The notes beneath the pieces were generated by a model. The model worked only from the letters and a program-made list of their open reading frames with translations. It made no database searches and was not told the DNA's origin. From IMG/VR virus record IMGVR_UViG_3300028591_000176, positions 12,970 to 76,969 of that record: a stretch of DNA of 64,000 nt. The stretch is one strand, 5' to 3'. Source of the DNA: a virus. Its lineage: Duplodnaviria > Caudoviricetes. This document shows, piece after piece, positions 41,100 to 62,428 of this stretch. Within the stretch, counting starts at the first letter, position 1. Each line of letters opens with the position of its first letter. The position numbers and the translations under genes were made by a program.

Positions 41100-41276
41100 T
41101 TATTTTATCATGTCCATATTCAGTCGTTTGTAACTAAATCTTAGTTTTTTAATGTCCCAACCATGCTTGCACATATTGGTCTTAAAACGTTTCTTAACCT
41201 TACGAGGCAGACGGTAGCGTTTGCCAGCAATTTTCTTGTGCATCTTGCCTACTGGTCTAAATGCTTTTTGTTCCAT
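41100..41276 (-). CDS. Small basic hypothetical protein (58 aa)
   Basis: MEQKAFRPVGKMHKKIAGKRYRLPRKVKK...; translated by hand. Confidence 0.55.
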   Translation of the reverse strand: MEQKAFRPVGKMHKKIAGKRYRLPRKVKKRFKTNMCKHGWDIKKLRFSYKRLNMDMIK

Positions 41277-45668: not shown

Positions 45669-45709
45669 AATTCTTTTGTTTATGTTGAACGTAAAAAGTG
45701 TCTTTTAAA

Positions 45710-45738
45710 AAGCCTACTACTTTCGCAAGCCTCGGCTT
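45710..45738 (-). promoter_or_regulatory. GNRA/bulged-G hairpin, copy D
   Basis: AAGCC GAG G CTT GCGA AAG T AGTA GGCTT then TTT. Confidence 0.6.
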
Positions 45739-45805
45739 CGGAAAAAATGTGTACTGAAAAATCCTAAACTTAAAACAACAATAATATAATAAGATGAAAT
45801 GGCAT

Positions 45806-46087
45806 TTAGCTCTTTCCTCCGCGCGCCCTGCGGTCGCCAGCAGTGTCCGACTTACTACCACGGTTTGTAGAAGACTTCTTGTACACAAGTCCATGCTTCG
45901 TGTGCGACAAGTCTTTTCCTTTCCGTGATGCTTTTCCGTACTTGCGGTCGTGCTGACGATTCTTAACCGTAAGCTCTGAACGCTTTTTGCGCTGTTCCGC
46001 TTTTTTATTAAACTTCCTATTGTACGCATTCTTCTTTGCTCTTGCTCTTGGATGCGTGCGATAGTATCTTGCAGACCTGCTGACCAT
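45806..46087 (-). CDS. Very basic small protein, degenerate HNH-like C-terminus
   Basis: 93 aa; GKDLSH...STNRG. Confidence 0.6.
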   Translation of the reverse strand: MVSRSARYYRTHPRARAKKNAYNRKFNKKAEQRKKRSELTVKNRQHDRKYGKASRKGKDLSHTKHGLVYKKSSTNRGSKSDTAGDRRARGGKS

Positions 46088-46092
46088 TGCTA

Positions 46093-46485
46093 TTAGAATT
46101 TTTGATGTTTAAACTCTTCTACTTTTTCATTAAGCTCGCTTTTCAGCGAACCAAGATGTTCAAAGCTTTCTTTCGGCATCCGTGGCGCACCTGCATGCCA
46201 TGCTTTTAAGTTCATACCGCGCAAGTTGTATTCTGTACACTTGCTATTATATTCTAGCCATTCGGTATATTCATTTTTTGTGACATCATTCTTTACGCAA
46301 AAGATAATGTCATCCATGCTGATGAATAGCCAGTCTATGCAAGCATACAGCCCGCCAATCTCGTCGCCAACCCAATAGCCATATTCGCTATCTAGTTCCC
46401 AATTCTGCAAGAGGGCGTTAAGGTAGTTTGTTACCGACCTTTCGTATTCCTCTTGCAGCAGTGCTTTATGTGCTTTGGTTATCAT
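46093..46485 (-). CDS. Hypothetical phage protein
   Basis: YGYWVGDEIGGLY; probable start MITKAH. Confidence 0.7.
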   Translation of the reverse strand: MITKAHKALLQEEYERSVTNYLNALLQNWELDSEYGYWVGDEIGGLYACIDWLFISMDDIIFCVKNDVTKNEYTEWLEYNSKCTEYNLRGMNLKAWHAGAPRMPKESFEHLGSLKSELNEKVEEFKHQKF

Positions 46486-46486
46486 A

Positions 46487-46951
46487 TTACTTTCCGCTAG
46501 AACCATACGAATCCAATCCCCTATCTGAGCCAGAAAGACTATCAGACTCAACAAACTCAATCTCTGGGTATGGCATAATTACTATCTGACCAATGCGCTC
46601 TCCGACACGATAGTCCCTGTCTTCATTTCGCCTTAGATACACAGAAGGCTCCCACATGGTGGCAAAAGACCAATGTTGTTTAAACTTGAAAGAAATCTCG
46701 CCCCTAAAACCACTGTCCACGACTCCAACCGAGTTGCTTAAAAGCAAATCTTTTTGTGCGTTGCTTGAACGCGGGAATACAAGACCAACGTAGCCTTTAG
46801 GTATCTCGAACGCGATGCCACAACCATAGACAATATTTCCGTCATTATCATGGCTCATGGAATGAGCGTACAAATCGTAGCCAGCATCGGTATCATGAGC
46901 CTTTGTCGGCAATATCGAATCGTTATATAACTTTTTAATTCTTACCTTCAT
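46487..46951 (-). CDS. dut: Trimeric dUTPase
   Basis: AGYDL, PRSSNA, VGVVDSGFRGEI, GERIGQ, RGLDSYGSSG; start MKVRIKKL. Confidence 0.93.
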   Translation of the reverse strand: MKVRIKKLYNDSILPTKAHDTDAGYDLYAHSMSHDNDGNIVYGCGIAFEIPKGYVGLVFPRSSNAQKDLLLSNSVGVVDSGFRGEISFKFKQHWSFATMWEPSVYLRRNEDRDYRVGERIGQIVIMPYPEIEFVESDSLSGSDRGLDSYGSSGK

Positions 46952-47624
46952 CTGCCTGCTCCTCCATTGCACTTTCAAGTTCCTGTTCCTGAATGGCATT
47001 GATGTTCTCTTGCATGACCTGTTCGTCAGTCTTCTTTTCAAACAACGTACGCTCATTCATGTTGGCGGTAAACTCTTGCATCAGTTCGCCAATGCGATTG
47101 ATGAATGACTTGTTTGTGACATCATCCGTTTTCTCTGACAGAACGATGCTGTTACGCGCGATGTTATGCAGGTAGTCCTCATACACAAGGAATGATTCAA
47201 CTTCCGACTCGCCGATAAGGAATAGCGGCTGGAAGATGTTAAAGAGCCACCAGTCAACAAACGTGGCAATATTATATTCTGCTTGCTCCGCCTTATCCTT
47301 TAGCGTTGCCAATAGCTTTGAAAACGAAAGGCCGTTTTCGGTAAGGCAATCGTTATCTAACGTAATATCCACAAGCCTACTTATATACAAGTACGGGCGA
47401 CTAATGCCAGTATTTGTGATGTGTGAAAACAGGTGGCGGTGGTATCCAGTTTCGACAACCGCCGTGTCGCTCGTTACAGTAAGGCGCAAGCCTTTGTCGC
47501 TAAAGAACACAGACTTGGTATCCTTGTCTTTTTCAACAAAGACGACGGCCTGCTTGATTCGTCTTTCAAGCTGTGCCTTTGTCTCTTTCTTTTGTTCTCG
47601 CATTTTAACTTCCATGACTTTCAA
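46935..47624 (-). CDS. Hypothetical protein
   Basis: 229-aa ORF in operon. Confidence 0.75.
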   Translation of the reverse strand: MKVMEVKMREQKKETKAQLERRIKQAVVFVEKDKDTKSVFFSDKGLRLTVTSDTAVVETGYHRHLFSHITNTGISRPYLYISRLVDITLDNDCLTENGLSFSKLLATLKDKAEQAEYNIATFVDWWLFNIFQPLFLIGESEVESFLVYEDYLHNIARNSIVLSEKTDDVTNKSFINRIGELMQEFTANMNERTLFEKKTDEQVMQENINAIQEQELESAMEEQADEGKN

Positions 47625-47747
47625 GTTCTTTAATTCTTGCTTCTATTTGTTTTATCGCATTTTCTATCGTGCAGGTAGGATAGCTCTTTATTACATCTTT
47701 CAGCACGGACACCTGTGCCCGAAGCCTTAATAATCCATAGTCCATCG

Positions 47748-48278
47748 TCATACCTGTTTGTTCGTGTCCGAGTAAATAACTGACAAGCGCATAAGCAACC
47801 CTTCGTGTGTCGTTGGTATTCTTCCGCGAATCTTATTCTTCTTGTTGTGTGCCTCGATAAAAGCGCGTGCTTCGCTATCGTTGTTGATGAAATCAAAATA
47901 GTACTCATGCTCTGGCATTACAACACCATCATCGACTCCTTCGTTGACAATATCATTTACCTCGTTCAGGATTTGCTGCGCACGTTTCTTGGACTCTTCA
48001 TCCAAGTCTAGCGTATCAATGTCCTCTACCTGTGTCATATAGTTTGGTACTACATACACTTGGCTAATGCTAACAAAAGGCTCTAGACCGAACGTTTTCT
48101 TTATACGTACGCTATCGTCCTTTTCCGCATTGAATGTAGCCACGGCATAAGCCTGCTTCCCGCTATACAGATTTACAACAGCAACACCGCGTTCAAACGA
48201 TGTCACTCCGTCGTGTATCTTTTTGGGTATGCTAGGCAAACCTAGATATTCAAGTATTTCTTTTTCGTATACTATCAT
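47748..48278 (-). CDS. Hypothetical protein
   Basis: 176-aa ORF downstream of promoter. Confidence 0.75.
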   Translation of the reverse strand: MIVYEKEILEYLGLPSIPKKIHDGVTSFERGVAVVNLYSGKQAYAVATFNAEKDDSVRIKKTFGLEPFVSISQVYVVPNYMTQVEDIDTLDLDEESKKRAQQILNEVNDIVNEGVDDGVVMPEHEYYFDFINNDSEARAFIEAHNKKNKIRGRIPTTHEGLLMRLSVIYSDTNKQV

Positions 48279-48299
48279 TGTTTTTTTTCTTTTATTAAA

Positions 48300-48328
48300 A
48301 CGCTACTACGTTTCGCAACGGTTCGCGC
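48300..48328 (-). promoter_or_regulatory. GNRA/bulged-G hairpin, copy C
   Basis: GCGC GAA C CGTT GCGA AACG T AGTA GCGT then TTT. Confidence 0.6.
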
Positions 48329-48369
48329 AACTATTCCAATTAAAAAAATATATGAGATATAAAACGATG

Positions 48370-48401
48370 CAAAGATACTAATAATATCTTTAAGTTCCAA
48401 A
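48370..48401 (-). promoter_or_regulatory. Bacteroidota promoter
   Basis: TTTG (48398-48401), 20-nt spacer, TATCTTTG (48370-48377). Confidence 0.75.
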
Positions 48402-48419
48402 TTTTTAACCTTTTTTATG

Positions 48420-48644
48420 TCATAAAACGCTTTTTAGCTTTTTTATTCTAGCCAATCCTTCATTTGTCGGCTTGCCTCTATCATCACAAGGAACAAGCAC
48501 TTCGGTTCTGTCGTTTACTTTTACCCAGCGGTATCCTTTGCTGAGTTTTTCTTTTTCTTGGCGTTTAGCTTTTTCTAGCGCGCGTCTGTCTGCATCTGTC
48601 ACGGTTCTATTGACATGTGTTGCAATCCAATTTGTTTCGTTCAT
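48420..48644 (-). CDS. Small hypothetical protein
   Basis: 74-aa ORF. Confidence 0.6.
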   Translation of the reverse strand: MNETNWIATHVNRTVTDADRRALEKAKRQEKEKLSKGYRWVKVNDRTEVLVPCDDRGKPTNEGLARIKKLKSVL

Positions 48645-48672
48645 TTTCTTGTCGGTTTAATGTTGTTGTGTT

Positions 48673-49794
48673 TTACACTCTGTCTTTTAGGGATTTGAGC
48701 CAGTCAAGAAATTTGTCATAAGTTTTCCACTCATATTCTTTAGCATCGTGTTTGTTTGCTAAAATTTCATCCCGAATACCTTGCAAAGTTCTTTCATCCT
48801 CTTCACTCCACTCAGCAGGCTTCTTTCTAACAGGTTCATAAAGTTCCCATTCATCTTGTTTTGTAATATCACAGATAATTCTGTCTTTGTACCAATACTT
48901 TCCACCTGTAATATTAGTAATTATAAATGAGCCAAAATCGTTAATATCAGAATTATGCTTTTTAATAATAGTATTACCAATATGGAAAATAGGAACAACA
49001 ATCTTCTTCAACTCTTTCTTCTCGGAATCCCACTCATATCCTGCTTCTTTCATTCTTTGGAACAAAAGTTCACGTTGTTCTTTGGTGGCTGGATGAATAT
49101 CCATTTTATCTTGTTCTGTTAGTGAATAAAGACTATCCATTATAAATCTTTTACCATCATAGCAACAATGATAAACAAAACCGCCAAAGGTTGGCTCTTG
49201 TTTAGTGCAATTTTTAATATCGTGCTTATATAGTGAAATTTCATCTTTATAAAAAAGCACATCACCATCCTTTGCATCTTCGATAGCCCAATAACGGAAA
49301 TAGTCAGATGCTTTACCATCATGCCTATTAATAAATCGACACCCATCTTCGCCTTTTATAACATTATCTTTTTCTGCTTGATATGTTTTGCCTTTAATCG
49401 CAATAATTTTACCTCTTAAAGTATATGTCTGAGTGCATACATACCACTTCCCTTCTTCAATTTCAAATTTTGGTTCAACCTTATTAATAGATTTTCCGAA
49501 ATATGGATCAATACTATTGTAATCCTTAACGTCAGAGTCATTCTGCTCACCTTGCCTTTCAAGCCAAGCAATACTTTTTAGAATCATCAATTCTAAATCA
49601 TGTGGGTTGTTAACATCTGATTTAAGTTCAAGTTGAGTGACAATCCACTTTCTTATCTTCTCATCCTCAGACTCAGCAAGTTCGGGAAACATTTCTTCTT
49701 TCAAAGACTGTGAAAACATTATGTTTTCGCCATCATATTTATGTAAAACTTTTAAAGCCTCGTCATAGGCTTTTGCTTTTTGTTCTTGTGTCAT
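48673..49794 (-). CDS. Mosaic hypothetical protein built of short modules
   Basis: 373 aa; KAKAYDEAL/FPELAESEDE, EDAKDGDVL, HPATKEQRELLF, WSEEDE modules; AT-rich. Confidence 0.75.
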   Translation of the reverse strand: MTQEQKAKAYDEALKVLHKYDGENIMFSQSLKEEMFPELAESEDEKIRKWIVTQLELKSDVNNPHDLELMILKSIAWLERQGEQNDSDVKDYNSIDPYFGKSINKVEPKFEIEEGKWYVCTQTYTLRGKIIAIKGKTYQAEKDNVIKGEDGCRFINRHDGKASDYFRYWAIEDAKDGDVLFYKDEISLYKHDIKNCTKQEPTFGGFVYHCCYDGKRFIMDSLYSLTEQDKMDIHPATKEQRELLFQRMKEAGYEWDSEKKELKKIVVPIFHIGNTIIKKHNSDINDFGSFIITNITGGKYWYKDRIICDITKQDEWELYEPVRKKPAEWSEEDERTLQGIRDEILANKHDAKEYEWKTYDKFLDWLKSLKDRV

Positions 49795-49806
49795 AATTAC
49801 AAATAT

Positions 49807-52800
49807 TTAATCTAAATCGTAAATTTCATCATTTGGTAATACCATAACGCCAAAGAATCTGAATGGATAGGAATTAATTCTTTGCCACCATACATTTTTA
49901 GTTGTGGTCATAAAACTATACCATCTAAACCAATGATATTTTTTTGCCCATATTAATTTAAAGCACCACGCTTTTGCTCCGAAACATAAAGCTGGCCATT
50001 CATGTATATATGCAAAACCGAATAGTTTCATAATTACAATAATTTTCGTTCATGTAATTTTATTATCATCTCATAACAAGCATCAACAAAATAATCACAC
50101 ATATCAGTTTCTATACTTTCAAAATCCCTATAAGGGTCTGTATATACAAGTTGGTACACATTGTCCTCTTTGTAAATTTGCAAGTACGATGAATTACCAT
50201 CATTATCGAACAACTCATAAGGAAGTTGCTCAAGCAATGCTGCAAGACTCCAAGCCCTAACACAAGTATCATCAAATTGTTCATCCATAACCATTGGATA
50301 ATACTCATGCTTCTGAACATCATAGTCCCAATACATATCCGCACTTTCAAGTGGCAGTATCTCTGCCAGCTTCTTTGACTGTTCTAAATCTGTATAACTC
50401 TTCATAATAAGTTCTGTTCTTTAAGCCAAATAATCATATTTACGCAAGCATCAATAGGATTGTCTGCTGGTATTGTCTCGATGATGTAGTCATCAGTAGA
50501 TTCTCCCTCTTTCTCATAGCAGCAGAGCCATGAGCTTGTATAGTTGCCTTTTACATCGTAATAGCCAAAGCTAAGGCTGACGCAAGAGCCTTCTTTTTTG
50601 GGGAAGGTGTTCATTAGTGCTGCCAAAGACCATGCTGGAATCACGACCTCTGGACTTGCCCATTCTGTGCCAGTTACCAAGATGTCATCCCATTCCTTTG
50701 TTGTCGGGTTTAAGATGGATTCGTAAAATCCATCCGCACTTTCAAGTGGGAGGAACTTTCCCAAGGTTATGGACTGAGAGAGTGATGTGTATGCTTTCAT
50801 CTTATTGCTCTTTTAAGTTGGGTTATAAATATCTCCGTTGATTCAAGGGCTTTGTAGATAGTAGCCCAGTCTCCTTCTGCCTCTGCTGTGTGTATGGCAG
50901 CAAGGCATTCTAGGTTTTCATCGTATATCTTGGCAAGCAGTTTAACAGCCATCTTGCGTTTGTTGTTGCGTGTCTCTTCTGTTGTCATAGCTTTCCTTTC
51001 TTATTTCAATTTTCAAAATATCATCCTTATACATGTGCCTTACAATATCCTCCGCTTTCTTCTCTGACTTTGCCTCGATGATTTGGGTTTTAGTCCAGTG
51101 CGGAAGATGTCGGAAGGTTATAAATGCTTTATACTTCATAGCTACTCTCTTTTCATTGCTTTATTTCTCAACCATTCCATTTCTCTTGTTAGGTCAAGGT
51201 TGTAGTCATTCTCAACGCGCTTTAGATTGACGATGATTTTCTCTGCCATGCCTCTATCCGCTGCTGTGATAGGATTGTTTACTTGCAATCCAAGCTCAAA
51301 GAAATGACGAGCAATAGACTTCCAGTCAGTAAAATCAAAATACTCATTTTTTGATACTCGTATAATTTCTTTCTCTAAGTTTACCTCTTTCACTTCAAGG
51401 GGGCAATCGACTTCTATTTCCGTGATGTCCCTGCCATAAGCATCCTCGTTACCTTCAAACTGCTTGCAGTATTCCTCTGCTTTTTTCTCACTAAAGAATG
51501 CTTCTTCTACATAGTCGGAATGTTCCTCGCATCTTGTGACAACATAGAGTTTCTTTTTCTGGAATTCTTTTACCTCAAGGGTGTCGATGAAAAAAAGAAT
51601 CTTGTCCAAAGCATTATTCCAACCAAAGTCATATTCTTCCTTGTCAAGGTAGAATTTCCTTTCACTTTCTATCTCCGCTACTATAGCGGCTTTTGGTATG
51701 TACTGTTCCATAGCTACTGGTTTATAAATTCTATCTCATCACACCAATAAACACAACCATTAACATCTGTGACTCTTATCAAGTCTTCTGCGTTTGGATT
51801 ACCTGCCATACAACCAAGACTTTCAAAAGACTCTACACAGAGTCTTGTTACCTCTTCATGGTGCGATAACAATATTCCCACCTTATTCATAGCTTACTCT
51901 CCTTTCATATATTTTCTAAAGTCCTCAATAAAATGGTATAATTCATTACCATCTAAGCCAAACAAATGATGTGATTGTCTAAAGAAGTCTTGTGCCTTGT
52001 CAATAAAGACTTCGGTGCGGGTGTACTCAAGACTATCATGAGGGTCTTTATTTGAATATATATCAAGAATACCGTTAATATCACTTGTATTAAAATATAA
52101 TTTCTCTGGTGCTTCCATAATTTTATTTTTTATATATCTTAAATACTACAGTACTGTCCACGGCAACACTATCTTTGTAGGTTATTTCTAACGTTGTTTT
52201 ACCTTGGTAGACATCCATAGCAGTAGGACAGTACAAAGTGTAACAAACCATAAGTATTGCTGGAATACATACACCAATAATTCCACCAAACAAGCCTAAA
52301 GGTTTGCTTGAGTCTTTATTTTCTACAAGTGTTAGAACCCATCCAATAAACATGAATAATATATTAAAAATAATAATCTCTTGCATAACTTTATTCTTTA
52401 TAAGGGTTATTTTCTTTTGTTACAGCAATAGCAAGACCTTTCGATATTAAACCTCTTACATCAAATCCTTTGGATAATAGCCAATCATTAACCATTGTGG
52501 TTGCCGACTCACTATTTTCGAAACTGCAATTTTGTGATTTAACTACTATTTTAGCATATTCCTTTTCTTCTTCTCCAGTCATTGAAGACATTGGACGAAG
52601 ATACGGTTTAATGTCCTTAATTTCGTTATAATAAAACGCGTCTCTTAAAACATCACCATAGTTATGTTCTAAATCCAATATGCCTTCTTCTGTTGTTCCT
52701 TCTTTAAGCCAAACCTTTACACGTACATGGTGAGGCAACCTTGCTGAAAGGTCTTGGAATAATAGTTGTTTTTCTTCTCGTGTCATAGTTTACTCCTCCA

Positions 52801-54318
52801 TCGCTTTTTTGAGTTTCTTGATAAATTCATCACGCTTTAACCATGTCTGGGCATGGTAGATTGTGAGGCATTTGTCGATGTGGTCTTCCAGCCATTGGTA
52901 GGTGTCTGCTATGGCCTGATGGTAGCCGTACTTGATGGCATCGTCAAATGTTGGCTGACGGTGTTCTCTCTCAATAAGAGAGATTACAAAGTCAGACTCA
53001 CGCTGTGCATCTTCCTCCGACTGTCGGTCACAGGCTGCGAGGCGGTTCTTTTCAAGCTGGCTTTCTTGCCATTCAGCACCTGCATTGTATGCCTGCTCGA
53101 TTTCCATTCGCCATAGTTCCTGCTGTTCTTTGGACAGCTGCTGAAACAGGCTGCTTTCTATGTTAAAGGAATACTCTTCTGCTTTTGTCATAGTTGCTAT
53201 AGTTTTGATGTATCTATGACTTCCGTGAACACGACCTGCTTTCCGTCTCGGCGGTTTCCTGACGTGCAGGCATGGCGGTGGAGGTAACATGAGCCGTTGT
53301 AGTTTTTTAGTCCCGTGTCTTTGTCCTTGTGGGCGTACCAGCATCCTTCGCAGGTACGACAGTCGGATATTTCAACCACTTTTAGCAGTACGCCACCTTC
53401 CTCGAAGGTTGAGCCTACTGGATTAAAAATCATTTTATTCATGTTCGTTGTCGGGTTTATTCTTCTCTTTCATCGTAAATTCGATTTCAAAATCGTCACT
53501 ATACCACGTTTTTCTGTCGTAGTGCCTATAGATTGTCTGATAAACAAGGCTGGCAATAGCTGTTGTTACGTCTATATTGAAACTGAATTTCCATTCGCTC
53601 CCCTTTTCATCGGTGATAATATGCTCACCATCCTTGCAAGTTACCTTAATGGTGGTATTTAATACTTCGTCCATATTAGACAATTATTTTATCTTCCTTT
53701 TACTATGTTATCTACATCTTGGACAAACTTTTTCTGGTTTGTGCATTTCAGCATAATTCCGTAGTCATGTGCAGCGCAAGTGTTTCTGTGTGTATATCGC
53801 TTACATTGCCATCTTACGGAGCATTGCATTCCCAAGCATACTTTCTTGTCATCTTTCATATATCCACATGGTTTTTAACGTAGAGGTCACGAATCGCATA
53901 TAATGCCGTTATCTCATCAGCGACAAGCATAGTCGTTGGGCATACAAGCGTACCATTACAAGTAAGCCATAGCTCTTTCTCATGCGTGGTAAGGTTAAAC
54001 ATGACCTTTGCCTGTTTCTCTGCGAACTTACGTTTGCTTTCTAAACTTTTTTCTTTCCGTCTTTGCAGAAAGTTTCTTATACTATCAATCATATTTTTAG
54101 CGCATAAAGTTTTTGAATATGCCGCCTTTGCGTATGAATGCAAGAATCGGCACTTTGTAATAGTCAACATTATAATAGCTAAAAGGAGTAATGTCGCCTT
54201 CGGTGCAATCCACAAACATGGATTTGTACTTTGCATCAACGAGTACAATGTGTTTCGGGAAACGCAGTTCGCGCTCCAGTGCGCTATGTGAATGTAGGTA
54301 CGTTATTCCTGTTGTCAT
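49807..54318 (-). other. Cluster of ~17 small, tightly coupled hypothetical ORFs (49807-50031, 50034-50405, 50402-50800, 50797-50988, 50942-51139, 51142-51711, 51714-51890, 51894-52118, 52123-52386, 52391-52786, 52790-53191, 53197-53442, 53435-53683, 53689-53859, 53856-54092, 54097-54318)
   Basis: Head-to-tail ORFs with 0-8 nt gaps or overlaps; 50034 and 50402 are paralogs (LPLESAD...AWSLAAL). Confidence 0.65.
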
Positions 54319-54376
54319 TTTGTATAATCTTTAATGGCGAGGCCGCTATCATGCAGCCCCACCTATGTTGTTAATG

Positions 54377-55213
54377 CTATTTCTGCTCGTCAAAGTCAGC
54401 GAACTTTTGTGCCACCTCTTGCGCCTTTTGCTCGTCGATAACGTTTCCGTTGGGATTGTCAACATACTCCGCATCGAAAGCATCGACGTTTAATTCACCG
54501 ATGTCATCCGAATTTAGATTGACCTTTGACTGGTCAAACTTTAATGCGGTCTGCATGGCTACAGATTTCGGCGCATACTTGTTAAGCAGGCTTTTTAGCA
54601 CTGTCTTCTTTGCCATCTGCCAAAAATCCGATTTCCAAGGACTGTCATATCCGCTTCTGTAAGCCTGAGAAAAGCGTTTGGCATGATTTTCAATTTCTTC
54701 AAGCGACCAGTAGATTGTCTTTGAATATCCGTTAATGAGGTCAAACCGTGCCATAACGCCGATAGGCTTTGCCTGACCATTTTTGTCAAGCTTAATACTA
54801 TCTTCATCAAAGATATATTCACCAGTGAACTTGTTTTTCTTCACAAGTTGACCATCATACACAACCTCATCGATAATATTACGGAACTCGCCACTTCGCA
54901 TAGCCAATTCAAGAATGCCCTTGTAGCCAATCTGAAAGCTGCATACGCCCTTGTATGGGACAAGGTAGGCCATACCCAATGTGGGTACTACTGGGAGGTC
55001 AAGCGTGGCAGCGACCATCGCTGACGAAAGAATACTCATCGGCTCTGCATTACGCAAAAGCTTGTTGTTTTGAGATACGCTAATTACGCTGCTAATGAAT
55101 GAGCTTGCTTTCTTTTCCGAGCCAAGAACGTCATTCATTTTTTTGACAACAGCAGAGCTATTCATAAGCTGCTGTAATGTCTGTTGTTGTTTTACTACTA
55201 CTTCGTTTGCCAT
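54377..55213 (-). CDS. recT: RecT/Red-beta-like ssDNA annealing protein
   Basis: LGMAYLVPYKG, FQIGYKGILELAMRSG, SPWKSDFWQMAKKTVLK. Confidence 0.9.
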   Translation of the reverse strand: MANEVVVKQQQTLQQLMNSSAVVKKMNDVLGSEKKASSFISSVISVSQNNKLLRNAEPMSILSSAMVAATLDLPVVPTLGMAYLVPYKGVCSFQIGYKGILELAMRSGEFRNIIDEVVYDGQLVKKNKFTGEYIFDEDSIKLDKNGQAKPIGVMARFDLINGYSKTIYWSLEEIENHAKRFSQAYRSGYDSPWKSDFWQMAKKTVLKSLLNKYAPKSVAMQTALKFDQSKVNLNSDDIGELNVDAFDAEYVDNPNGNVIDEQKAQEVAQKFADFDEQK

Positions 55214-55225
55214 AATTGTTACAAA

Positions 55226-55765
55226 TTAAATAAATTTCCAAACATATCCATTACTTGTTTTTGATATACCATTACATGCCTGAGATAAGCGAGAATATGA
55301 AATTCCTAGTGTCTCAACAATTTCCTTCATACTATTCCATTCTTTTATTAGTTCGCCAGACAATGAGTATTGTGCTACTCTTTTAAACCTAGACTCACTA
55401 CATCTTTTAATGCCAGTTCCGTAGTTTGAATTGTATTTAGGTGTACACCATTCAAGGTTCTCTACGCTGTTATTAAGCTTGTTTTCGTCCTTATGGTTAA
55501 CTTGTGGTAAGCAATGTGGATTTGGGATAAAAGCCTGTGCCACCAAACGATGAACTGAAATCATTTTTATTTTACCATTTGCGTCACGTAGTTTTACTCT
55601 TTTATACCCACTGACAATATGCTGGATAAGTGTTTTTGCGTTTATGTGCGTTTTACCTCCATGCCATAAACGTTTTTCTCTTCCAAGCATCTTTACACTT
55701 CCAGTGTTGCTTACTTGGTAAAGACCTTCGTAGCCCACAATGTCTCGCCAAATCTCATTCATCAC
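55226..55765 (-). CDS. NUMOD4-HNH homing endonuclease with NUMOD1-like C-terminus
   Basis: EIWRDIVGYEGLYQVSNTG, HRLVAQAFIPNP, VNHKDENKLNNSVENLEWCT. Confidence 0.92.
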   Translation of the reverse strand: MMNEIWRDIVGYEGLYQVSNTGSVKMLGREKRLWHGGKTHINAKTLIQHIVSGYKRVKLRDANGKIKMISVHRLVAQAFIPNPHCLPQVNHKDENKLNNSVENLEWCTPKYNSNYGTGIKRCSESRFKRVAQYSLSGELIKEWNSMKEIVETLGISYSRLSQACNGISKTSNGYVWKFI

Positions 55766-55766
55766 G

Positions 55767-56756
55767 TTATTGCCTTTCGTTTGCTTTTATCTTTATGTTC
55801 ACATAAGCCTTGCGCTGTGTGCGCTTTTCAAAGGCTTTAAGCAGCTTTTTTGCCTTGCGTGGGTGTTTGTTCGTCATATCATCTATGAACGCCTTAGAAT
55901 CGAAGGAAATGGCCTCTGTGGCGTTTACAAGCGTTATGTTCCAGCTGTCATTCTTGATAGATTTGATTCCCTTGTCCTGCATGAACGTACAAAGCCTGCG
56001 CTTGAACTCATCTATCTTTGCTTCGCGCTCTTTGATTTCCGTGAGCATGGTTGTTACTACATCAAACTCCGTCTTAACGTTCTCTGGCAGCAGCTCGCTA
56101 GGAATCTCATCACCGTCATAATATTCATTAAAGTCCTCCAAGAATGCATCCACGATGTTCATGGCGCGCTCTATATCATAAGGCACGGTCTTGCCGAAAC
56201 GAATCTGGCGCACAGTCAGGCGGCTTTCGTCAAACGGCGGTTCACTATCGACATCGATTCCATCGGTGCTATAATGGCATAGGATAACGCGCAGCTGATA
56301 GTCGCCGAGCTTCTTCGCTAGCTCCTTTCCCATGACATAATGGTGGTATAATTGTGCCGCATATTCGCCGCGTGTCTGCTCTATTGTCAGCCGTGTTGCC
56401 TTACACTCTCCTAGAGTTAGGATTTTATTCTCATCGTCCTGCAACAGGAAGTCAACATGGTCGATAACCTTGCAGTTAGGGCGGGAATATTTGTCGCTCA
56501 CAAGACAGGGGTTAGACTGCCACCTGCGGTCGCTCTCGTTGAGACATGCAAATACACAAGCCTCAATGTAGTTACCATACTCCATTGCTGCATTTGTGAA
56601 CTGCTGTGGCTCTATAAGCCCTTTACATACTGCAAGCCGCTTGTATGCCGACTTGGGCACATAGCCTGCTTCTGCGATTTGCTGCAACATCTTGGCATCG
56701 CTACCGCCAAGACACCCTTTACGGGTGTTGATAATGTCTTCTTTGTGTTCGTACAT
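55767..56756 (-). CDS. YqaJ/lambda-exonuclease-like recombination nuclease
   Basis: RKGCLGGSDA, HVDFL...GECKAT, QLYHHY; upstream of RecT. Confidence 0.75.
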   Translation of the reverse strand: MYEHKEDIINTRKGCLGGSDAKMLQQIAEAGYVPKSAYKRLAVCKGLIEPQQFTNAAMEYGNYIEACVFACLNESDRRWQSNPCLVSDKYSRPNCKVIDHVDFLLQDDENKILTLGECKATRLTIEQTRGEYAAQLYHHYVMGKELAKKLGDYQLRVILCHYSTDGIDVDSEPPFDESRLTVRQIRFGKTVPYDIERAMNIVDAFLEDFNEYYDGDEIPSELLPENVKTEFDVVTTMLTEIKEREAKIDEFKRRLCTFMQDKGIKSIKNDSWNITLVNATEAISFDSKAFIDDMTNKHPRKAKKLLKAFEKRTQRKAYVNIKIKANERQ

Positions 56757-56785
56757 AAATCTGTTTGTTTGGTTAATGTTTTTGA

Positions 56786-57127
56786 TTATTGATATGGTCG
56801 TGTCTGAACGACGTAAATCTCGTTTGCATTGACAGCGTTTACTCTAACGGCCTTGCCTTTTACCTCGTCAGGGAAAGAACTTATAAAGCCAAAGATGACC
56901 ACGATACATCCGCTATGCGCTTTTACACTTTTCAGGTAGTCGATGACTGGCTTGCGAAAACACATGATATGTAGGGATTGCCGTTGGTTGTTCTCCGTGC
57001 TGTTTGCCGTCTGCTTTGACTCAACCTCTAGCGGAAACCATATATATGTACCGCCGGCCTGTGTCTTGCCTTCCTTGAACGCAGCACCTATCCGACCTAC
57101 AAGTGTCAGTTGATTTCGGTTCGCCAT
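56786..57127 (-). CDS. SSB-like OB-fold protein lacking an acidic tail
   Basis: NQLTLVGRIG...GCIVVIFGFI. Confidence 0.5.
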   Translation of the reverse strand: MANRNQLTLVGRIGAAFKEGKTQAGGTYIWFPLEVESKQTANSTENNQRQSLHIMCFRKPVIDYLKSVKAHSGCIVVIFGFISSFPDEVKGKAVRVNAVNANEIYVVQTRPYQ

Positions 57128-57128
57128 C

Positions 57129-57353
57129 TTATAACTCTTTAATCTTTGCTTTAAGTATCATCAGTTCGCGCTCCAGCCGCCCAGCCTTTGCCGCTGCTGC
57201 CATCCAAGCCCTATAATACTTGTCACGCTCCATGCGTAGACGCTTGTTGTCCTCATCTACCATTTCCTGCCTGTACTGCTCTTTCGTGCAATACCGCCCG
57301 TTCTTTCTTCGTAGTCGATGCTGCTTAAACATCGTTGTTTGTTGTGATTCCAT
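57129..57353 (-). CDS. Small coiled-coil hypothetical protein
   Basis: 74-aa ORF after promoter. Confidence 0.6.
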   Translation of the reverse strand: MESQQTTMFKQHRLRRKNGRYCTKEQYRQEMVDEDNKRLRMERDKYYRAWMAAAAKAGRLERELMILKAKIKEL

Positions 57354-57372
57354 ATACTTTTGTTTTCTTTTG

Positions 57373-57380
57373 CAAAGTTA
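57373..57380 (-). promoter_or_regulatory. Promoter -7 box of recombination operon
   Basis: Minus strand TAACTTTG. Confidence 0.55.
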
Positions 57381-57441
57381 CTAAATAAATCTTTTGAATA
57401 ATTTTTTGTTAACAATGTTTTGGTTAAACATTATTAATGCG

Positions 57442-58176
57442 CTACTTGCCGTATATGCCTTTGGCTTTCCAGTGATAATATTCGCGCGTCATTTCCTTTT
57501 GCCTTTCAAGCTGTTCCTCAAACATCATACTTTCATCGATATAGGTAAAAAACCGAATCAACTCAGCATTGATACACTGGCCGCGCAACATGCCGCCGCC
57601 GAACATAAACACATCATACGGCACATCACCTTTGTCTGCATGCTTGTCAGATGATTCGTCACCTATGACATCAAAGTGCATCCACCTTAACATGATACTC
57701 TCAACTTTCTTTCGGAAGCTTATGTTGTCGCGTCCTTTGTCTTTAAGGTATCTCTTCGTGTACTGGTTAAAAGCATGCGGTACAATGTCGATGAAACACG
57801 TCATGCCACGGGTATATATATCGCCGTCCAGAAGCTCGTTTATTGTCAGCGGGTCAAACATAAAGATGCCTTTCCCTGTGTTGCCATCGACCTTTACGAT
57901 TCCCTTTTCTTTTTTCTCTATCTCATATATCGTGTAGCAATAACAAAGGAAACGACCTTTACGCCTGTCTTCTTTAGAACGACACATATATGTAAGCCAC
58001 CATGTGTTATTCCTGTCATCGACAAGCTTATAGTAGATAAAGAAAGGAAAACGAGTAGCGCGTTTCATCTTGTCGCGCGAAAGTTCGGCATTCATCTTGT
58101 GTATGCGCCTTACTTCCCTGACGATACCGAGAGCCTCAGCCATCTTTTCTTCATCCGTCATCATCGGTAAAAACAT
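57442..58176 (-). CDS. Hypothetical protein
   Basis: 244-aa ORF. Confidence 0.7.
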   Translation of the reverse strand: MFLPMMTDEEKMAEALGIVREVRRIHKMNAELSRDKMKRATRFPFFIYYKLVDDRNNTWWLTYMCRSKEDRRKGRFLCYCYTIYEIEKKEKGIVKVDGNTGKGIFMFDPLTINELLDGDIYTRGMTCFIDIVPHAFNQYTKRYLKDKGRDNISFRKKVESIMLRWMHFDVIGDESSDKHADKGDVPYDVFMFGGGMLRGQCINAELIRFFTYIDESMMFEEQLERQKEMTREYYHWKAKGIYGK

Positions 58177-58197
58177 AATCTTTCCTTTCTTTCATTT

Positions 58198-58827
58198 TTA
58201 GAATTTATAAACTTCATCAAACTTTCTCTCTTTCGCCATGCGATAGTAGTTTATTAGCTGGATGCCGACACTAAACGTACTTAACCACCGTTTGGATGCA
58301 AACAAGACATCCCTCCCGTTGATTTCGCCAAGCGCATAATTTTTCAATGGCATAGCCCGAACGCCAGCACTCTTGAACATCAGGTCTTGTGCAGACGAGA
58401 ACATGTTTGATAATGTCATGCCGACAGTCTCCCACCTGATTGGTATATATTCCTGCCTGAAACGTTCAATACCAAGACCATGTATTAGTGCGTTATACGA
58501 ACGGCGTGCTTTTTTTATGGAAACGTATCCCCAATATTCAATCTCTTCGTACAGGAACGCATCTTCATCCCATGCATTGCTCATTATTAGCGGAACGTTT
58601 TTCCAGAACTTTGCAGACTCTTTATAGCCATTGTCGCCACATGCATACATCGTATCAAACGTATGGATGCTGTTTGCAATAGCATCATATCTGTTTCGTT
58701 CGCTCATCATCCTATAGGCTGACGCAAACTCATGCAGGTCGCTGCCTTTTGTCTTGAACGCATAGATACCATTGCTACGGCCTACTGTCGTGCGTGGGCG
58801 AATCCTACTTGCTGCCATAACACTCAA
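58198..58827 (-). CDS. Hypothetical protein
   Basis: 209-aa ORF. Confidence 0.65.
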   Translation of the reverse strand: MSVMAASRIRPRTTVGRSNGIYAFKTKGSDLHEFASAYRMMSERNRYDAIANSIHTFDTMYACGDNGYKESAKFWKNVPLIMSNAWDEDAFLYEEIEYWGYVSIKKARRSYNALIHGLGIERFRQEYIPIRWETVGMTLSNMFSSAQDLMFKSAGVRAMPLKNYALGEINGRDVLFASKRWLSTFSVGIQLINYYRMAKERKFDEVYKF

Positions 58828-58969
58828 TTGTTTTAGGGTCTATGTCATAGACTTTCTTGTAGCCTATGTCATCTACCTCATCCGTGACAATAAAAAACTC
58901 TCCATCTTTTTTAAATAAAGAGCCAGTCACGAATCTATCTTCTGACTGGCTATAACCCATGTACATCAT
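58805..58969 (-). CDS. Small YopX-like fragment (54 aa)
   Basis: FVTGSL...FIV...IDPKTIEC; translated by hand. Confidence 0.4.
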   Translation of the reverse strand: MMYMGYSQSEDRFVTGSLFKKDGEFFIVTDEVDDIGYKKVYDIDPKTIECYGSK

Positions 58970-58970
58970 A

Positions 58971-59270
58971 TTACTTCGATTTTACGTTCAACCAGCCGCC
59001 GTCAAGCATAACGTCAACTGCAACCGATATAGTGAGTTCTTTTAAACATACATCCATAAAAGCTCCCTTGTCGTCGTGTGCATTCAACAAATCCACTAAT
59101 ACATCGAGCGGATTTTCATAGCCAAACGACTTCATTTCCAGAAATCTTTTTCATATGTGAGCTGTCAACATTTCATAATCTTCATCGCTAAAACTTTCGT
59201 GAAACATCCTGTTCGTTTCAATTAGCCTTTCGGTTAACTCTTCATCCGTCATTTCAACTTTCTTTCCCAT
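58971..59270 (-). pseudogene. 99-codon reading frame interrupted by one in-frame TGA
   Basis: TGA at 59151-59153; the frame continues KRFLEMKSFGYEN... Confidence 0.45.
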
Positions 59271-59284
59271 AGTTTTCTATTTTT

Positions 59285-59539
59285 TTAGTTTAAGTCGTTT
59301 TCATTCACAGCTTCTTTCTTGTCCGCCTCCTGACATTCAATGAGCGCGGCGCAAAACATTTTCACAACTTCCTTCTTGTCTGCATTTAAATTGCGCGCAA
59401 GGTCATCCAAGAACGAATCCACAACGGCAGTTACAACCGTCAACGCATTTTCAAGGTCTGCATCTGTAGCAGCCAGTCCATAACCAAGCGCATGGCGAAT
59501 AAATCCGACAAGCGCAATAAACTTTTTCTCTGTTTCCAT
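59285..59539 (-). CDS. Small helical hypothetical protein
   Basis: 84-aa ORF. Confidence 0.6.
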   Translation of the reverse strand: METEKKFIALVGFIRHALGYGLAATDADLENALTVVTAVVDSFLDDLARNLNADKKEVVKMFCAALIECQEADKKEAVNENDLN

Positions 59540-59569
59540 AATTCTTTTGTTTTGGTTGTTAATAATAAA

Positions 59570-60004
59570 TTATTTCTTATATTTGTTATATTCTTCGTTT
59601 GCATCATAGCCAAGAACGTCATTACACAACTGGTCGCAAAGCTCATTGTACTTGTTTCCACTGTGACCACGTATCCATGCCCATTCCACTTCGCACTTTT
59701 TATGTTTCATAATCTCATCGAACTTGTCGAACAGGTCGTTGTTCGCATTCCTTGCCCATGTGTCGAACAAAGTATGCAGGGCATACTGCGAATCACTTAT
59801 AACCTTTATGCGCTTTGCACCTGCTGGCAAATGATAGATGCCTGCAATGATAGCCTTTAGTTCTGCACGGTTGTTTGTCTCATTGGTGATTTTCTTTGAA
59901 AAGCGTTTCACCTCATTGCCATCCTTGTCGAGCATAACGTACGCAAAAGCACCTTCATTATGCTTTCTTGAATAAGCTCCATCTGTGTAAATTGTGTAGT
60001 CCAT
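59570..60004 (-). CDS. rnhA: Ribonuclease HI
   Basis: IYTDGA, TNNRAELKA, SDSQY, WIRGHSGNKYNELCD. Confidence 0.93.
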   Translation of the reverse strand: MDYTIYTDGAYSRKHNEGAFAYVMLDKDGNEVKRFSKKITNETNNRAELKAIIAGIYHLPAGAKRIKVISDSQYALHTLFDTWARNANNDLFDKFDEIMKHKKCEVEWAWIRGHSGNKYNELCDQLCNDVLGYDANEEYNKYKK

Positions 60005-60011
60005 ATTTTTG

Positions 60012-60230
60012 TTATTTTACTTTGATTGTTATTTCAATTTCTTTGGGACTGTTTTCAAAGGTAAGCTCTGGTATAAAACTTTCATCTACACAACCTCGCA
60101 TGTTTTTGAATGAAGACCAATATCCATCGTTTGTTGCGTTTAATGTAGGCTTTTCTGCATACAGCCATACCGTGTTCGCGCTATCGCCTTTGTCGTGCGA
60201 AGCCCATAGTTTAAATTTCTTTTCTTCCAT
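60012..60230 (-). CDS. Small hypothetical protein
   Basis: 72 aa; IPELTFENSPKEIEI. Confidence 0.65.
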   Translation of the reverse strand: MEEKKFKLWASHDKGDSANTVWLYAEKPTLNATNDGYWSSFKNMRGCVDESFIPELTFENSPKEIEITIKVK

Positions 60231-60249
60231 ATTCTTGTTATTTGTTTAA

Positions 60250-60682
60250 ATTATGCACACTAGAACCTTTATGCTTATGTATAAAATAAGCGTGTTCACT
60301 CGAATGCTTTTCTACTTTACTGCCTTGTAGTTCGAGTTACAGCCTTTCATAGACACGTATGCTTTCCGTGTTTGTTTCATCTGTTTACCAACCTTTCGGC
60401 ATAAGCACCCGTTGTCAGGTTTCGGACAGCGCGGGATTTTTGGCTTGCAGACATATCCAATCAGACTATTTGTGTAAAGAAGCAGTTTTATATATGACTG
60501 GCAAAGTCAACGGGACTGCACTGTTTGAACCCTATGTCTTTGTGAAAACAAGAAAGCCGAACCATGTATAAACAAAAATCCAACCGATGTTGCCGCACCT
60601 GTTGGAAATTTGATATGTAGTTCAGCTTTCGCCTATCTACTTTTCTCTTATGTCCGTTACTACAAGTCGGCAACCTTGTTTC
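60250..60682 (-). ncRNA. Candidate structured non-coding leader/RNA
   Basis: ~450 nt between promoter (TATCTTTG at 60689-60696) and first credible ATG; kissing-loop pair and several GAAA-capped stems. Confidence 0.45.
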
Positions 60683-60753
60683 ACGATGCAAAGATACAAA
60701 CTATTATTTATTCCGCAATGGATTAATAACATTATTTAACCTTTTTATGGGCA

Positions 60754-61191
60754 TTAGAAAGGTTTTTTATGCTTACGGAACTTGTTTAGCAGCTTTTCCC
60801 ACCAAGGTTCATCTTTTAATTCAGCGATAACGTAGCTGCCGTATTCGCCGCGAACAACACTAACAACCTCTATGTTGTCGTATGGGTTGAACTCCATCCC
60901 GACGGCTTGGTCTGGCGACACGTAATCTAAGTACAGGTCTACCTCTTCTTTTGTGGCCAGCCTTAACGACTTTTCTTCACCGCCATAGCAGCTTATGTAG
61001 TCTGCATACCACAAACGTTCGTACACGCCGTTCTTGTCTTTCTCTCCCATGTCGCTATCACGGATGCAGTTGATGGCAACATCGAAATGGCCTGTGCAGT
61101 CGCATAGTGCTATTGCGCGCAGGTTTTTCTCTTCGATTTGATTCTTCCATGACATAAATGCCAGTGTTGTAAATCTCTTTTTCTTTTTCAT
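60754..61191 (-). CDS. Hypothetical protein
   Basis: Probable start MKKKKR overlapping the upstream TGA. Confidence 0.65.
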   Translation of the reverse strand: MKKKKRFTTLAFMSWKNQIEEKNLRAIALCDCTGHFDVAINCIRDSDMGEKDKNGVYERLWYADYISCYGGEEKSLRLATKEEVDLYLDYVSPDQAVGMEFNPYDNIEVVSVVRGEYGSYVIAELKDEPWWEKLLNKFRKHKKPF

Positions 61192-61505
61192 ACTTGTAAA
61201 TGTTTTGATTGTAAATACTTCTGGCAACGTGCCAGCTCTTCTTTTATGTCGTTAATTTCATCCTCGAGGCTTTTTCGTTTACGCTTATACTCTGGCTTGC
61301 ATCTTGCCAGTTTGATTTCGACATCATGCAGCCGTTCGTTAAGCGAGTGTACATACCTGAAAAACTCACGTTCACGCTCTAGTGCTTTGTCGGCCTGTCT
61401 TTCTGCATCCCAATAGTCCGTGCCTACAAAGCAGCCTTGTGCGCTTTCATCAATGCATTCGTCAATGTAATCATCGATAAATAAAGGGTTTATCATGTTA
61501 CTCAT
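61188..61505 (-). CDS. Coiled-coil hypothetical protein
   Basis: 105-aa ORF. Confidence 0.65.
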   Translation of the reverse strand: MSNMINPLFIDDYIDECIDESAQGCFVGTDYWDAERQADKALEREREFFRYVHSLNERLHDVEIKLARCKPEYKRKRKSLEDEINDIKEELARCQKYLQSKHLQV

Positions 61506-61550
61506 ATCGATTTGTTTTGTTTAGCATTTGCTACCATTTGCTAGCACTTG

Positions 61551-61970
61551 CTAGCATTTACTACATAGTATCTTTATTCCTTTCCATACAAAGAATCCGC
61601 TTACAATAATGTTTGCAATAACAATCGCATACACATATTCAGGGTATAGTTCTACCGTTATGAAATATTCTTTTTCTGCTAGTTGTATTGCCAAGTATAC
61701 GATTGCAAGCTTATTCCATACGCACGTCTCAACAGCAACGCTGATGGTAAGCAGTATGATTAACGTTATTACATTATATTCAAAGTACTGACCAATAAAC
61801 CATGATATGGGCTTGCTTGGAATATAGCTGCCATTCAGTAACACAAAATTAGATGATGACAAAGAAATCAATGTTTCTATATATGAAATAAGTACGATTA
61901 AGCAGACGGCAAAAGGTAACATTTTGCCAATATTAATAAGCAACACTCTTGAACGATGAACGATATTCAT
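61551..61970 (-). CDS. Polytopic membrane protein (about 4 TM)
   Basis: 139 aa, four hydrophobic segments. Confidence 0.6.
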   Translation of the reverse strand: MNIVHRSRVLLINIGKMLPFAVCLIVLISYIETLISLSSSNFVLLNGSYIPSKPISWFIGQYFEYNVITLIILLTISVAVETCVWNKLAIVYLAIQLAEKEYFITVELYPEYVYAIVIANIIVSGFFVWKGIKILCSKC

Positions 61971-62149
61971 TTCTTTCGTATTTTGACTTTAAATGTTGCT
62001 CCAACGTCTGCTGGCGGTCTTCCTTGTATTTTTCTTAATGCGAGCGTATCAGGCTTTGCCACTCTAGTTGCATCATTCTTCTGCACTAGCCTGACATCCT
62101 GCCTGAATACTATCTTGCGTTTACGCTTACGCCTTGCTCTAGCCATCAA
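61967..62149 (-). CDS. Small basic protein
   Basis: 60 aa, Arg/Lys-rich, directly after tRNA. Confidence 0.5.
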   Translation of the reverse strand: MMARARRKRKRKIVFRQDVRLVQKNDATRVAKPDTLALRKIQGRPPADVGATFKVKIRKK

Positions 62150-62162
62150 TTATATCTTTTTG

Positions 62163-62245
62163 CGGAAGGTGAGGGACTCGAACCCCCGAAACCTTTTGGC
62201 TTTACACATTAGCAGCGTGTCGCCTTACCACTCAGCCAACCTTCC
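62163..62245 (-). tRNA. tRNA-Ser (anticodon GCT), CCA not encoded
   Basis: Acceptor GGAAGGT/ACCTTCC, G73, anticodon stem ACACG/TGTGT with loop CTGCTAA, long variable arm, T-loop TTCGAGT. Confidence 0.92.
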
Positions 62246-62250
62246 TAAAA

Positions 62251-62279
62251 GTCGCTACTACTTTCACAAGCCTTGCGAC
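62251..62279 (-). promoter_or_regulatory. GNRA/bulged-G hairpin, copy B
   Basis: GTCGC AAG G CTT GTGA AAG T AGTA GCGAC then TTTT. Confidence 0.6.
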
Positions 62280-62325
62280 AACGTTTAGTCAACATTATTA
62301 ACTTAAAACCCTAATCAGAAAAGAA

Positions 62326-62358
62326 ATAGTCTACTGAACTTCACAGCCTTTCGACTAT
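62326..62358 (-). promoter_or_regulatory. GNRA/bulged-G hairpin, copy A
   Basis: ATAGTC GAA AGG CT GTGA AG TTC AGTA GACTAT then TTCTTTT. Confidence 0.55.
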
Positions 62359-62396: not shown

Positions 62397-62428
62397 CAAA
62401 GATAATGACTATTTTTCATATAGCCAAA
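62397..62428 (-). promoter_or_regulatory. Bacteroidota promoter driving the tRNA unit
   Basis: TTTG (62425-62428), 20-nt spacer, TATCTTTG (62397-62404). Confidence 0.75.

Follow-up and report, generated by a model that had tools for sequence, protein, structure and literature searches.

A recurrent loop-E/GNGA hairpin in Bacteroidota phages, probably a protein-recognized punctuation or terminator module

Introduction

In phage lambda, delayed genes are preceded by nut sites, several per genome, in which boxA is combined with boxB, a small promoter-proximal hairpin with a GNRA-class loop; the N protein that acts there is short, disordered and arginine-rich, and is encoded just downstream on the same transcript. 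Phage HK022 carries put RNA, a promoter-proximal and phage-specific ~70-nt unit of two stems, often tandem hairpins, that acts on RNA polymerase without a protein. A widened groove at a loop-E module under a GNRA-class loop is a site of the type bound by arginine-rich peptides, for which N–boxB and Rev–RRE are the established cases. Bacteroidota phages dominate gut and rumen viromes, and to our knowledge almost nothing is known about the timing of gene expression in these phages. Here we describe a ~30-nt hairpin, composed of a loop-E-type internal loop beneath a GNGA tetraloop, that occurs four times on the minus strand of IMG/VR virus record IMGVR_UViG_3300028591_000176. The stretch analyzed (hereafter the window) spans 64,000 nt, bases 12970-76969 of the 76,969-bp record. 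The hairpin is apparently an undescribed structured RNA motif of Bacteroidota phages, and its probable partner is a protein that sets the points at which transcripts end or are cleaved.

By its sequence, the source virus is a Bacteroides-type phage. The viral record was judged 97% complete, intergenic Bacteroidetes-type promoters (TAnnTTTG) are present in the window, and Bacteroides phage C3_41T2LP (OR296439), whose large terminase is 51% identical, is the nearest relative in culture.

Four copies of one hairpin design

Re-reading of the sequence, together with a structural scan, placed the four hairpins on the minus strand at 45739-45709, 48328-48300, 62279-62251 and 62358-62326 (copies 1 to 4, Table 1), where they had been proposed in an earlier reading of the same DNA (the original prediction). 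The design described there also held: the 4-6-bp outer stems are unrelated between copies, and the 5′ internal-loop strand (GAG, GAA(C), AAG and GAA(A)), the GCGA or GUGA loop and the 3′ (N)AGUA are all retained. Each module consists of an outer helix of free sequence and a 4-bp inner helix, separated by a 5′-RAR(N)/3′-(N)AGUA internal loop; a GNGA tetraloop caps the inner helix, and a U-run follows the outer one. Copy 2 has one extra mismatch beside its inner stem, and the inner stem of copy 4 holds two G.U pairs. The U-tract claimed to follow each hairpin is found at all four sites, with 4-7 U within 8 nt at or after the stem end.

When the whole 76,969-bp genome was scanned on both strands for the two stems, a GNRA loop and AGTA, exactly four matches were returned, against a mean of 0.07 and a maximum of 2 in 100 dinucleotide-type shuffles. 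Nearest-neighbour folding of the hairpins by itself is unremarkable (z about -1, not significant), which is no surprise where non-canonical pairs interrupt a helix; the folding treats the internal loop as open.

Covariation defines an RNA family on the transcribed strand

Homologues were gathered by scanning IMG/VR for the exact core, by looking for relatives through dnaN, and with covariance-model searches and a metagenome scan that added 24 contigs. A first covariance model (R1) was too sequence-specific and missed copy 4; it was superseded by R2, built from ten subtype-B copies, which retrieves all four window copies and nothing else in the genome. Another 12 viral contigs contain one to three R2 matches apiece. 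The resulting family has about 40 distinct full-length members, which reside in uncultivated phage and metagenome contigs, with tandem pairs in at least six contigs. Two subtypes can be told apart: subtype A has an inner helix shorter by one pair, with a terminal G.U, and in subtype B a mismatch lies between the inner stem and the AGUA/GAA loop.

Computed pairing strongly supports the fold. In the viral set, 96.1% of alignment cells are standard pairs, versus 73.9% in shuffles, and seven of nine pairs change on both sides; sliding the partner by 1-3 columns lowers pairing to 24-50%. In the metagenome set, 93.2% are paired versus 77.2%, again with compensatory change at seven of nine pairs. Both alignments were fitted to the model, which favours structure, and the outer stems are nonetheless visibly unrelated. 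Building a covariance model and searching related phages, the check that the original prediction had proposed, thus returned strong covariation and a single RNA family on the transcribed strand. Across the 40 members, G.U pairs outnumber A.C pairs by 24 to 1, so the structure exists as RNA of the transcribed strand.

The unpaired positions behave differently from the helices. Among the same 40 members, collected in part with scans that fixed GYGA and AGTA, the first position of the 5′ internal-loop strand is a purine (G in 26, A in 14), the second is A in all 40 and the third is A in 32 and G in 7; opposite, the AGUA strand is conserved in 39, 38, 40 and 40 members at its A, G, U and A. The tetraloop is G-N-G-A in 40/40 unique members, closed by U-A (C-G in one), and two variants carry a GAGAU pentaloop. 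Members found solely by the model retain the loop bases, and when 1.08 Mb of fetched phage DNA was scanned for the structure regardless of loop sequence, GNGA accounted for 22 of 33 matches, the remainder being singletons. Because the helices vary freely and the unpaired bases are almost invariant, the loop-E/GNGA face is most likely a recognition surface, read by a protein.

Comparison with described RNA elements

The predicted resemblance to loop E is borne out at the level of the signature, AGUA standing opposite a GAA-type strand between two helices, as in the rRNA sarcin-ricin/loop-E motif. The middle A and the U are invariant, and the first base of the 5′ loop is G or A, which is what a sheared pair with the last A would call for; the three-dimensional fold is a projection from sequence alone. 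Unlike the rRNA motif, the hairpin has the reversed orientation, with AGUA on the 3′ strand, and its tetraloop lies 4-5 pairs away and is GNGA rather than GAGA. The hairpin is therefore no mimic of the ribosomal sarcin-ricin loop. The loop itself belongs to the GNRA class, as had been proposed: four bases, G-N-R-A, with a Watson-Crick closing pair.

The likeness to lambda nut is one of size, promoter-proximal placement, copy number, loop class and gene order, since a short arginine-rich protein predicted to be disordered (P1, below) is encoded downstream of the tandem pair. In contrast, boxB is a plain 5-bp stem with a pentaloop and has no internal loop, nut sites are not followed by U-runs, and P1 has no detectable similarity to N, leaving an analogy of composition and gene order. 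No host-type boxA lies beside the hairpins either. One relative's tail resembles the E. coli boxA, but Bacteroidota rrn leaders use GUUCUUUGA, which was found in no hairpin flank or tail, and this candidate was dropped. With put the hairpin shares its phage specificity, its promoter-proximal position and its tendency to occur in tandem; unlike put, it is a single module of ~30 nt that is probably read by a protein, and it has no sequence or structural similarity to put or other processive-antitermination RNAs and no Rfam model match among them.

Intrinsic terminators and attenuators are closer in outward form. Like them, the hairpin has a GC-rich helix base with a direct U-run (in about 60% of members and in all four window copies), lies in leaders or between cistrons and can be arranged in tandem; a conserved non-canonical internal loop and an invariant tetraloop are unnecessary for termination. 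The tRNA punctuation and t-elements cut by RNase P or Z share with the hairpin its tight coupling to tRNA or tRNA-like genes in polycistronic phage transcripts, although the conserved element here is a hairpin upstream of the tRNA and not a tRNA-like fold.

A modular element restricted to phages

No Rfam family covers the hairpins: only tRNA-Ser passes a gathering threshold in the 64-kb window (Rfam 15), and E-value scans of three hairpin regions gave chance-level matches of at most 25 bits, far under thresholds. A full-text literature search found no description of the hairpin. At the DNA level, the hairpin region has no match among known phages, a scan of 50,697 GenBank phage records for the hairpin gave no real match, and phage C3_41T2LP carries no copy. 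We also considered a host-genome element and rejected it, as the hairpin is essentially absent from sampled Bacteroidota genomes: R2 found 2 weak matches in 151 of them, and a core-pattern scan of 185,579 species genomes, whose sensitivity was limited and in which part of the first-look candidates were scored, gave one plausible match and one chance match. The plausible match (L073 2606-2650), in a Saprospiraceae metagenome-assembled genome (MAG), is the sole convincing chromosomal core copy among the species genomes; a U-run follows it, and it borders directly on the 3′ end of an open reading frame (ORF) in the other strand.

Among relatives the element comes and goes. The copy-1 and copy-2 positions are empty in G001, G002 and G003, which made a syntenic alignment unusable for covariation, and G008 has a hairpin at the copy-2 position (L066). 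The motif also occurs in G009 and G012, two phages that share almost no genes with the source phage. The sites envisaged as a network by the original prediction are thus not a fixed one; with hairpins missing at the same positions in close relatives, the element is modular.

Hairpins stand before tRNAs, in leaders and between cistrons

Within the window, copies 4 and 3 form a tandem pair behind the promoter at 62404 and before tRNA-Ser, and one copy (site 45739) precedes dnaN, both as predicted (distances in Table 1). Promoters had been expected at short range as well. Consensus TAnnTTTG boxes end 35-36 nt before the model start at 62358 and 48328, and 113 nt before 62279, whereas the 45739 site before dnaN has a degenerate box only. 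Of five strong minus-strand promoters, two alone are associated with the hairpin.

Family-wide, the dominant neighbour is a tRNA. A tRNA or tRNA-like gene begins 4-7 nt after the stem in about 22/39 unique members (~60%), including positions internal to tRNA arrays. Tails are U-rich in 23/40 members; by context, they are so in 13/17 members without a following tRNA versus 11/22 with one (p = 0.11, members not independent). Roughly ten members, about a quarter, have no U-run at all yet retain the loops, and most of these stand before a Met-type tRNA-like gene.

A short upstream box also recurs. Boxes of the GUUUUAAGUU type lie 9-28 nt upstream of three of the four window hairpins, and the box (GUUUUAAGUU/UUUUAAGUU) accompanies about 20% of family members versus 2-5% of AT-rich control windows, an enrichment of 4-8 fold that is not universal. 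Its complement, AACUUAAAA, occurs ~10 nt upstream of the start codon in 5-13% of genes of these phages versus 0.5% background, and is enriched 10-20 fold within 30 nt before phage start codons. This pattern could reflect antisense pairing, or merely a shared AT-rich signal.

Candidate protein partners

The original prediction had named three small basic proteins as possible ligands, and genomic linkage separates them. A profile search detected the P1 gene, at 61967, in 10/10 hairpin-bearing contigs of the source phage group; three relatives that lack the hairpin, namely G013 (72% complete), G015 and the cultured phage, gave no match. The 93-aa gene at 45806 directly precedes a hairpin in four lineages. 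The third candidate, at 41100, fell away, as it is present in G002 and G006 only. Of these small basic proteins, none has a Pfam or PHROG annotation save phrog_6437, to which no function is assigned.

P1 proteins are 55-67 aa long, rich in arginine and lysine and predicted by structure prediction to be disordered; they form at least 128 clusters at 50% identity in public data, all without annotation, and an atlas search returned no match. The gene always precedes one for a ~137-aa multi-pass membrane protein, with stop and start overlapping, as a conserved two-gene cassette. Of the three usable contexts reached through P1 alone, one has a hairpin. On genomic linkage, P1 is the best candidate for the hairpin's partner.

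Discussion

The motif is real and well supported, and it combines known modules in a new arrangement; functionally, the hairpin is probably a protein-recognized punctuation or terminator module. What remains to be weighed is which of these it is. Because every window copy carries a U-run, we lean, short of even confidence, towards a factor-sensitive terminator/attenuator placed in leaders and intercistronic spacers, for which P1 is the foremost candidate factor. What an intrinsic terminator needs, a stable hairpin with an immediate U-run, is present at all four window sites. The four sites would be copies of a phage-specific ~30-nt structured RNA module within minus-strand transcripts, each acting as an intrinsic terminator/attenuator whose efficiency would be set by what binds the loop-E/GNGA surface. 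They would split the leftward early region into two units: one running from promoter 62404 through copies 4 and 3, tRNA-Ser and P1 to the membrane protein, and another from promoter 48377 through copy 2, the 176-aa ORF to the 93-aa basic protein, and copy 1 to dnaN. The ligand would be the ~60-aa disordered Arg/Lys-rich protein encoded just past tRNA-Ser, a layout that recalls lambda PL-nutL-N. The analysis itself establishes the motif with its covariation, strand, positions and U-runs, the phage restriction and the gene linkage; termination, protein binding and the identity of the protein are what we infer beyond that.

Several observations weigh against this terminator/attenuator reading. 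The U-runs are short (three window copies have just 4-5 U), and roughly a quarter of the family has none, which indicates that termination or attenuation is not the conserved function. Abutment to a tRNA in most members points to processing no less than to termination. No alternative pairing that could act as a competing antiterminator helix was seen. As for the factor, P1 was not found in the two unrelated hairpin-bearing contigs, G009 and G012, its linkage elsewhere is confounded by shared ancestry, and its translational coupling to a membrane protein is odd for a transcription factor. The invariance of the loops is itself partly ascertainment. The network of attenuation and antitermination proposed at the outset fares similarly: leader and intercistronic placement speaks for it, the members that lack a U-run or abut a tRNA speak against it, and, reasonable but unproven, it misses the dominant tRNA association.

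Nearly as likely as the favoured reading, and held with comparable caution, is an RNA 3′-end or processing module, in which the hairpin marks and protects an upstream RNA 3′ end formed 4-9 nt downstream, either through termination at a U-run or through RNase P cleavage at the neighbouring tRNA or tRNA-like element. The very narrow spacing from stem to tRNA fits this well, as does a U-run that is nearly always present where no tRNA follows and dispensable where one does, although that trend is not significant and the members are related. In L153 and G007 the hairpin follows the stop codon of the 93-aa gene across a promoter-free gap. The freed promoter-proximal leaders could further be stable small RNAs whose hairpin is bound by a chaperone-like protein, some of them carrying the UUUUAAGUU box complementary to the motif upstream of phage start codons; both the box and its complement are enriched as described above, but most members lack the box. 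Any stable hairpin would protect a 3′ end, so that the invariant loop-E/GNGA elements still require a binding partner. That the hairpin should instead serve tRNA maturation, tuning the access of RNase P or another nuclease from within the pre-tRNA 5′ leader, with copies before protein genes as secondary uses, we consider unlikely. The position directly ahead of tRNA and tRNA-like genes, the dominant context in metagenomes and one that extends inside arrays, is what it would predict, but two of the four copies in the window, and several elsewhere, stand ahead of ORFs and have no tRNA close by, neighbouring tRNAs of the same arrays lack the hairpin, and we know of no RNase P determinant of this shape.

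The strongest form of the partner hypothesis takes P1 to be a phage RNA-binding regulator of a new class that binds the hairpin, the two exerting an N/nut-like control native to Bacteroidota phages that gates tRNA arrays and replication genes, with loop E rather than boxB being recognized; we regard it as possible but doubtful. Were the linked ~60-aa basic protein indeed the partner, no N/nut-type system would have been described before outside the proteobacterial lambdoid phages, and this one would use another RNA fold. A simpler account, in which these are ordinary intrinsic terminators that resemble one another through duplication or recombination within one phage group and need no dedicated factor, would agree with the hairpin and U-run at 4/4 window sites and with the modular absences in close relatives. 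It appears improbable, since the stems have wholly diverged while 11 unpaired nucleotides are fixed, the motif recurs in the unrelated G009 and G012, and a quarter of members have no U-run. Least probable by far is an element that acts at the level of DNA, whether as a hairpin promoter read by a phage RNA polymerase or as a site of recombination or homing; its modular distribution, the fixed short gap to tRNA starts and the association with tRNA cassettes would be expected, but the excess of G.U over A.C means that the pairing works only as RNA of the transcribed-sense strand, and host-type promoters lie upstream. The hairpin-promoter variant was also pursued through its polymerase: the search turned up no gene for a T7-type RNA polymerase, and the two giant ORFs encode tail proteins, a weak negative given that the PF00940 control matched nowhere.

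Whichever of these applies, a compact, recognizable RNA module in early regions and before tRNAs offers an experimental handle, being both mutable and usable as bait for its partner, and it can serve to annotate transcription or processing boundaries in uncultivated phage genomes.

Table 1. Hairpin copies and neighbouring features of the window (window positions).
Feature	Position	Strand	Remarks
Hairpin copy 1, subtype A, with U-run	45702..45739	-	R2 34 bits; 67 nt past the stop of the 93-aa gene, 41 nt ahead of the dnaN start codon
Hairpin copy 2, subtype B, with U-run	48293..48328	-	R2 47.6 bits; leader of the 176-aa ORF
Hairpin copy 3, subtype A, with UUUUA tail	62246..62279	-	ends 5 nt before tRNA-Ser
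Hairpin copy 4, subtype B variant, with U-rich tail	62315..62358	-	R2 47.1 bits; first of the tandem pair
Bacteroidetes-type -7 box (TAnnTTTG, then CA)	62397..62404	-	consensus match only; leader with copies 4 and 3
Bacteroidetes-type -7 box	48370..48377	-	consensus match only; leader with copy 2
Upstream box, GUUUUAAGUU type	62300..62309	-	20 nt ahead of copy 3
Similar GUUUUAAGUU-type boxes	62380-62371 (copy 4), 45776-45767 (copy 1)	-	ahead of the named copies
tRNA-Ser(GCU)	62162..62245	-	directly downstream of copy 3
P1 family protein, 59 aa, Arg/Lys-rich, predicted disordered	61967..62146	-	candidate hairpin ligand through genomic linkage only
Multi-pass membrane protein, 139 aa	61551..61970	-	start overlaps P1 stop; pair conserved
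176-aa ORF	47748..48278	-	downstream of copy 2
Very basic protein, 93 aa (phrog_6437)	45806..46087	-	hairpin after the gene here and in G002, G007 and L153
DNA polymerase III beta clamp (dnaN)	44544..45668	-	downstream of copy 1

Other structured elements of the region and its relatives

Elsewhere in the window, a consensus promoter (TATCTTTGCA) at 60696-60580 (minus strand) is followed by a different structured leader without the hairpin motif, so that structured leaders of at least two sorts are in use in this phage. A tRNA-like minihelix lies at 62497-62448 (minus strand), between the 62404 promoter and a 52-aa Cys-rich ORF (62650-62492) whose stop it follows directly. It has an acceptor-type stem and a canonical GGTTCGATTCC T-arm, and neither a D arm nor an anticodon arm; neither ARAGORN nor Rfam calls it. 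This minihelix could be an RNase P/Z processing site or the remnant of an attachment site.

Among the relatives, a transfer-messenger RNA (tmRNA, tag AKVVNMTPRAQVLAAAA) closes the tRNA array, a short way ahead of dnaN, in L033 (9654-9964) and L034 (50-360). In L031 (9407-9480), L037 (9555-9630) and relatives, the hairpin is followed by tRNA-like genes of non-canonical form, with CAU in the anticodon loop and an unusual D arm, for which ARAGORN gives no call. Finally, behind a hairpin in G002 (L018 1541-1612) stands a tRNA in which ARAGORN reads a four-base anticodon loop (acta), and which may be a suppressor or frameshift-type tRNA.

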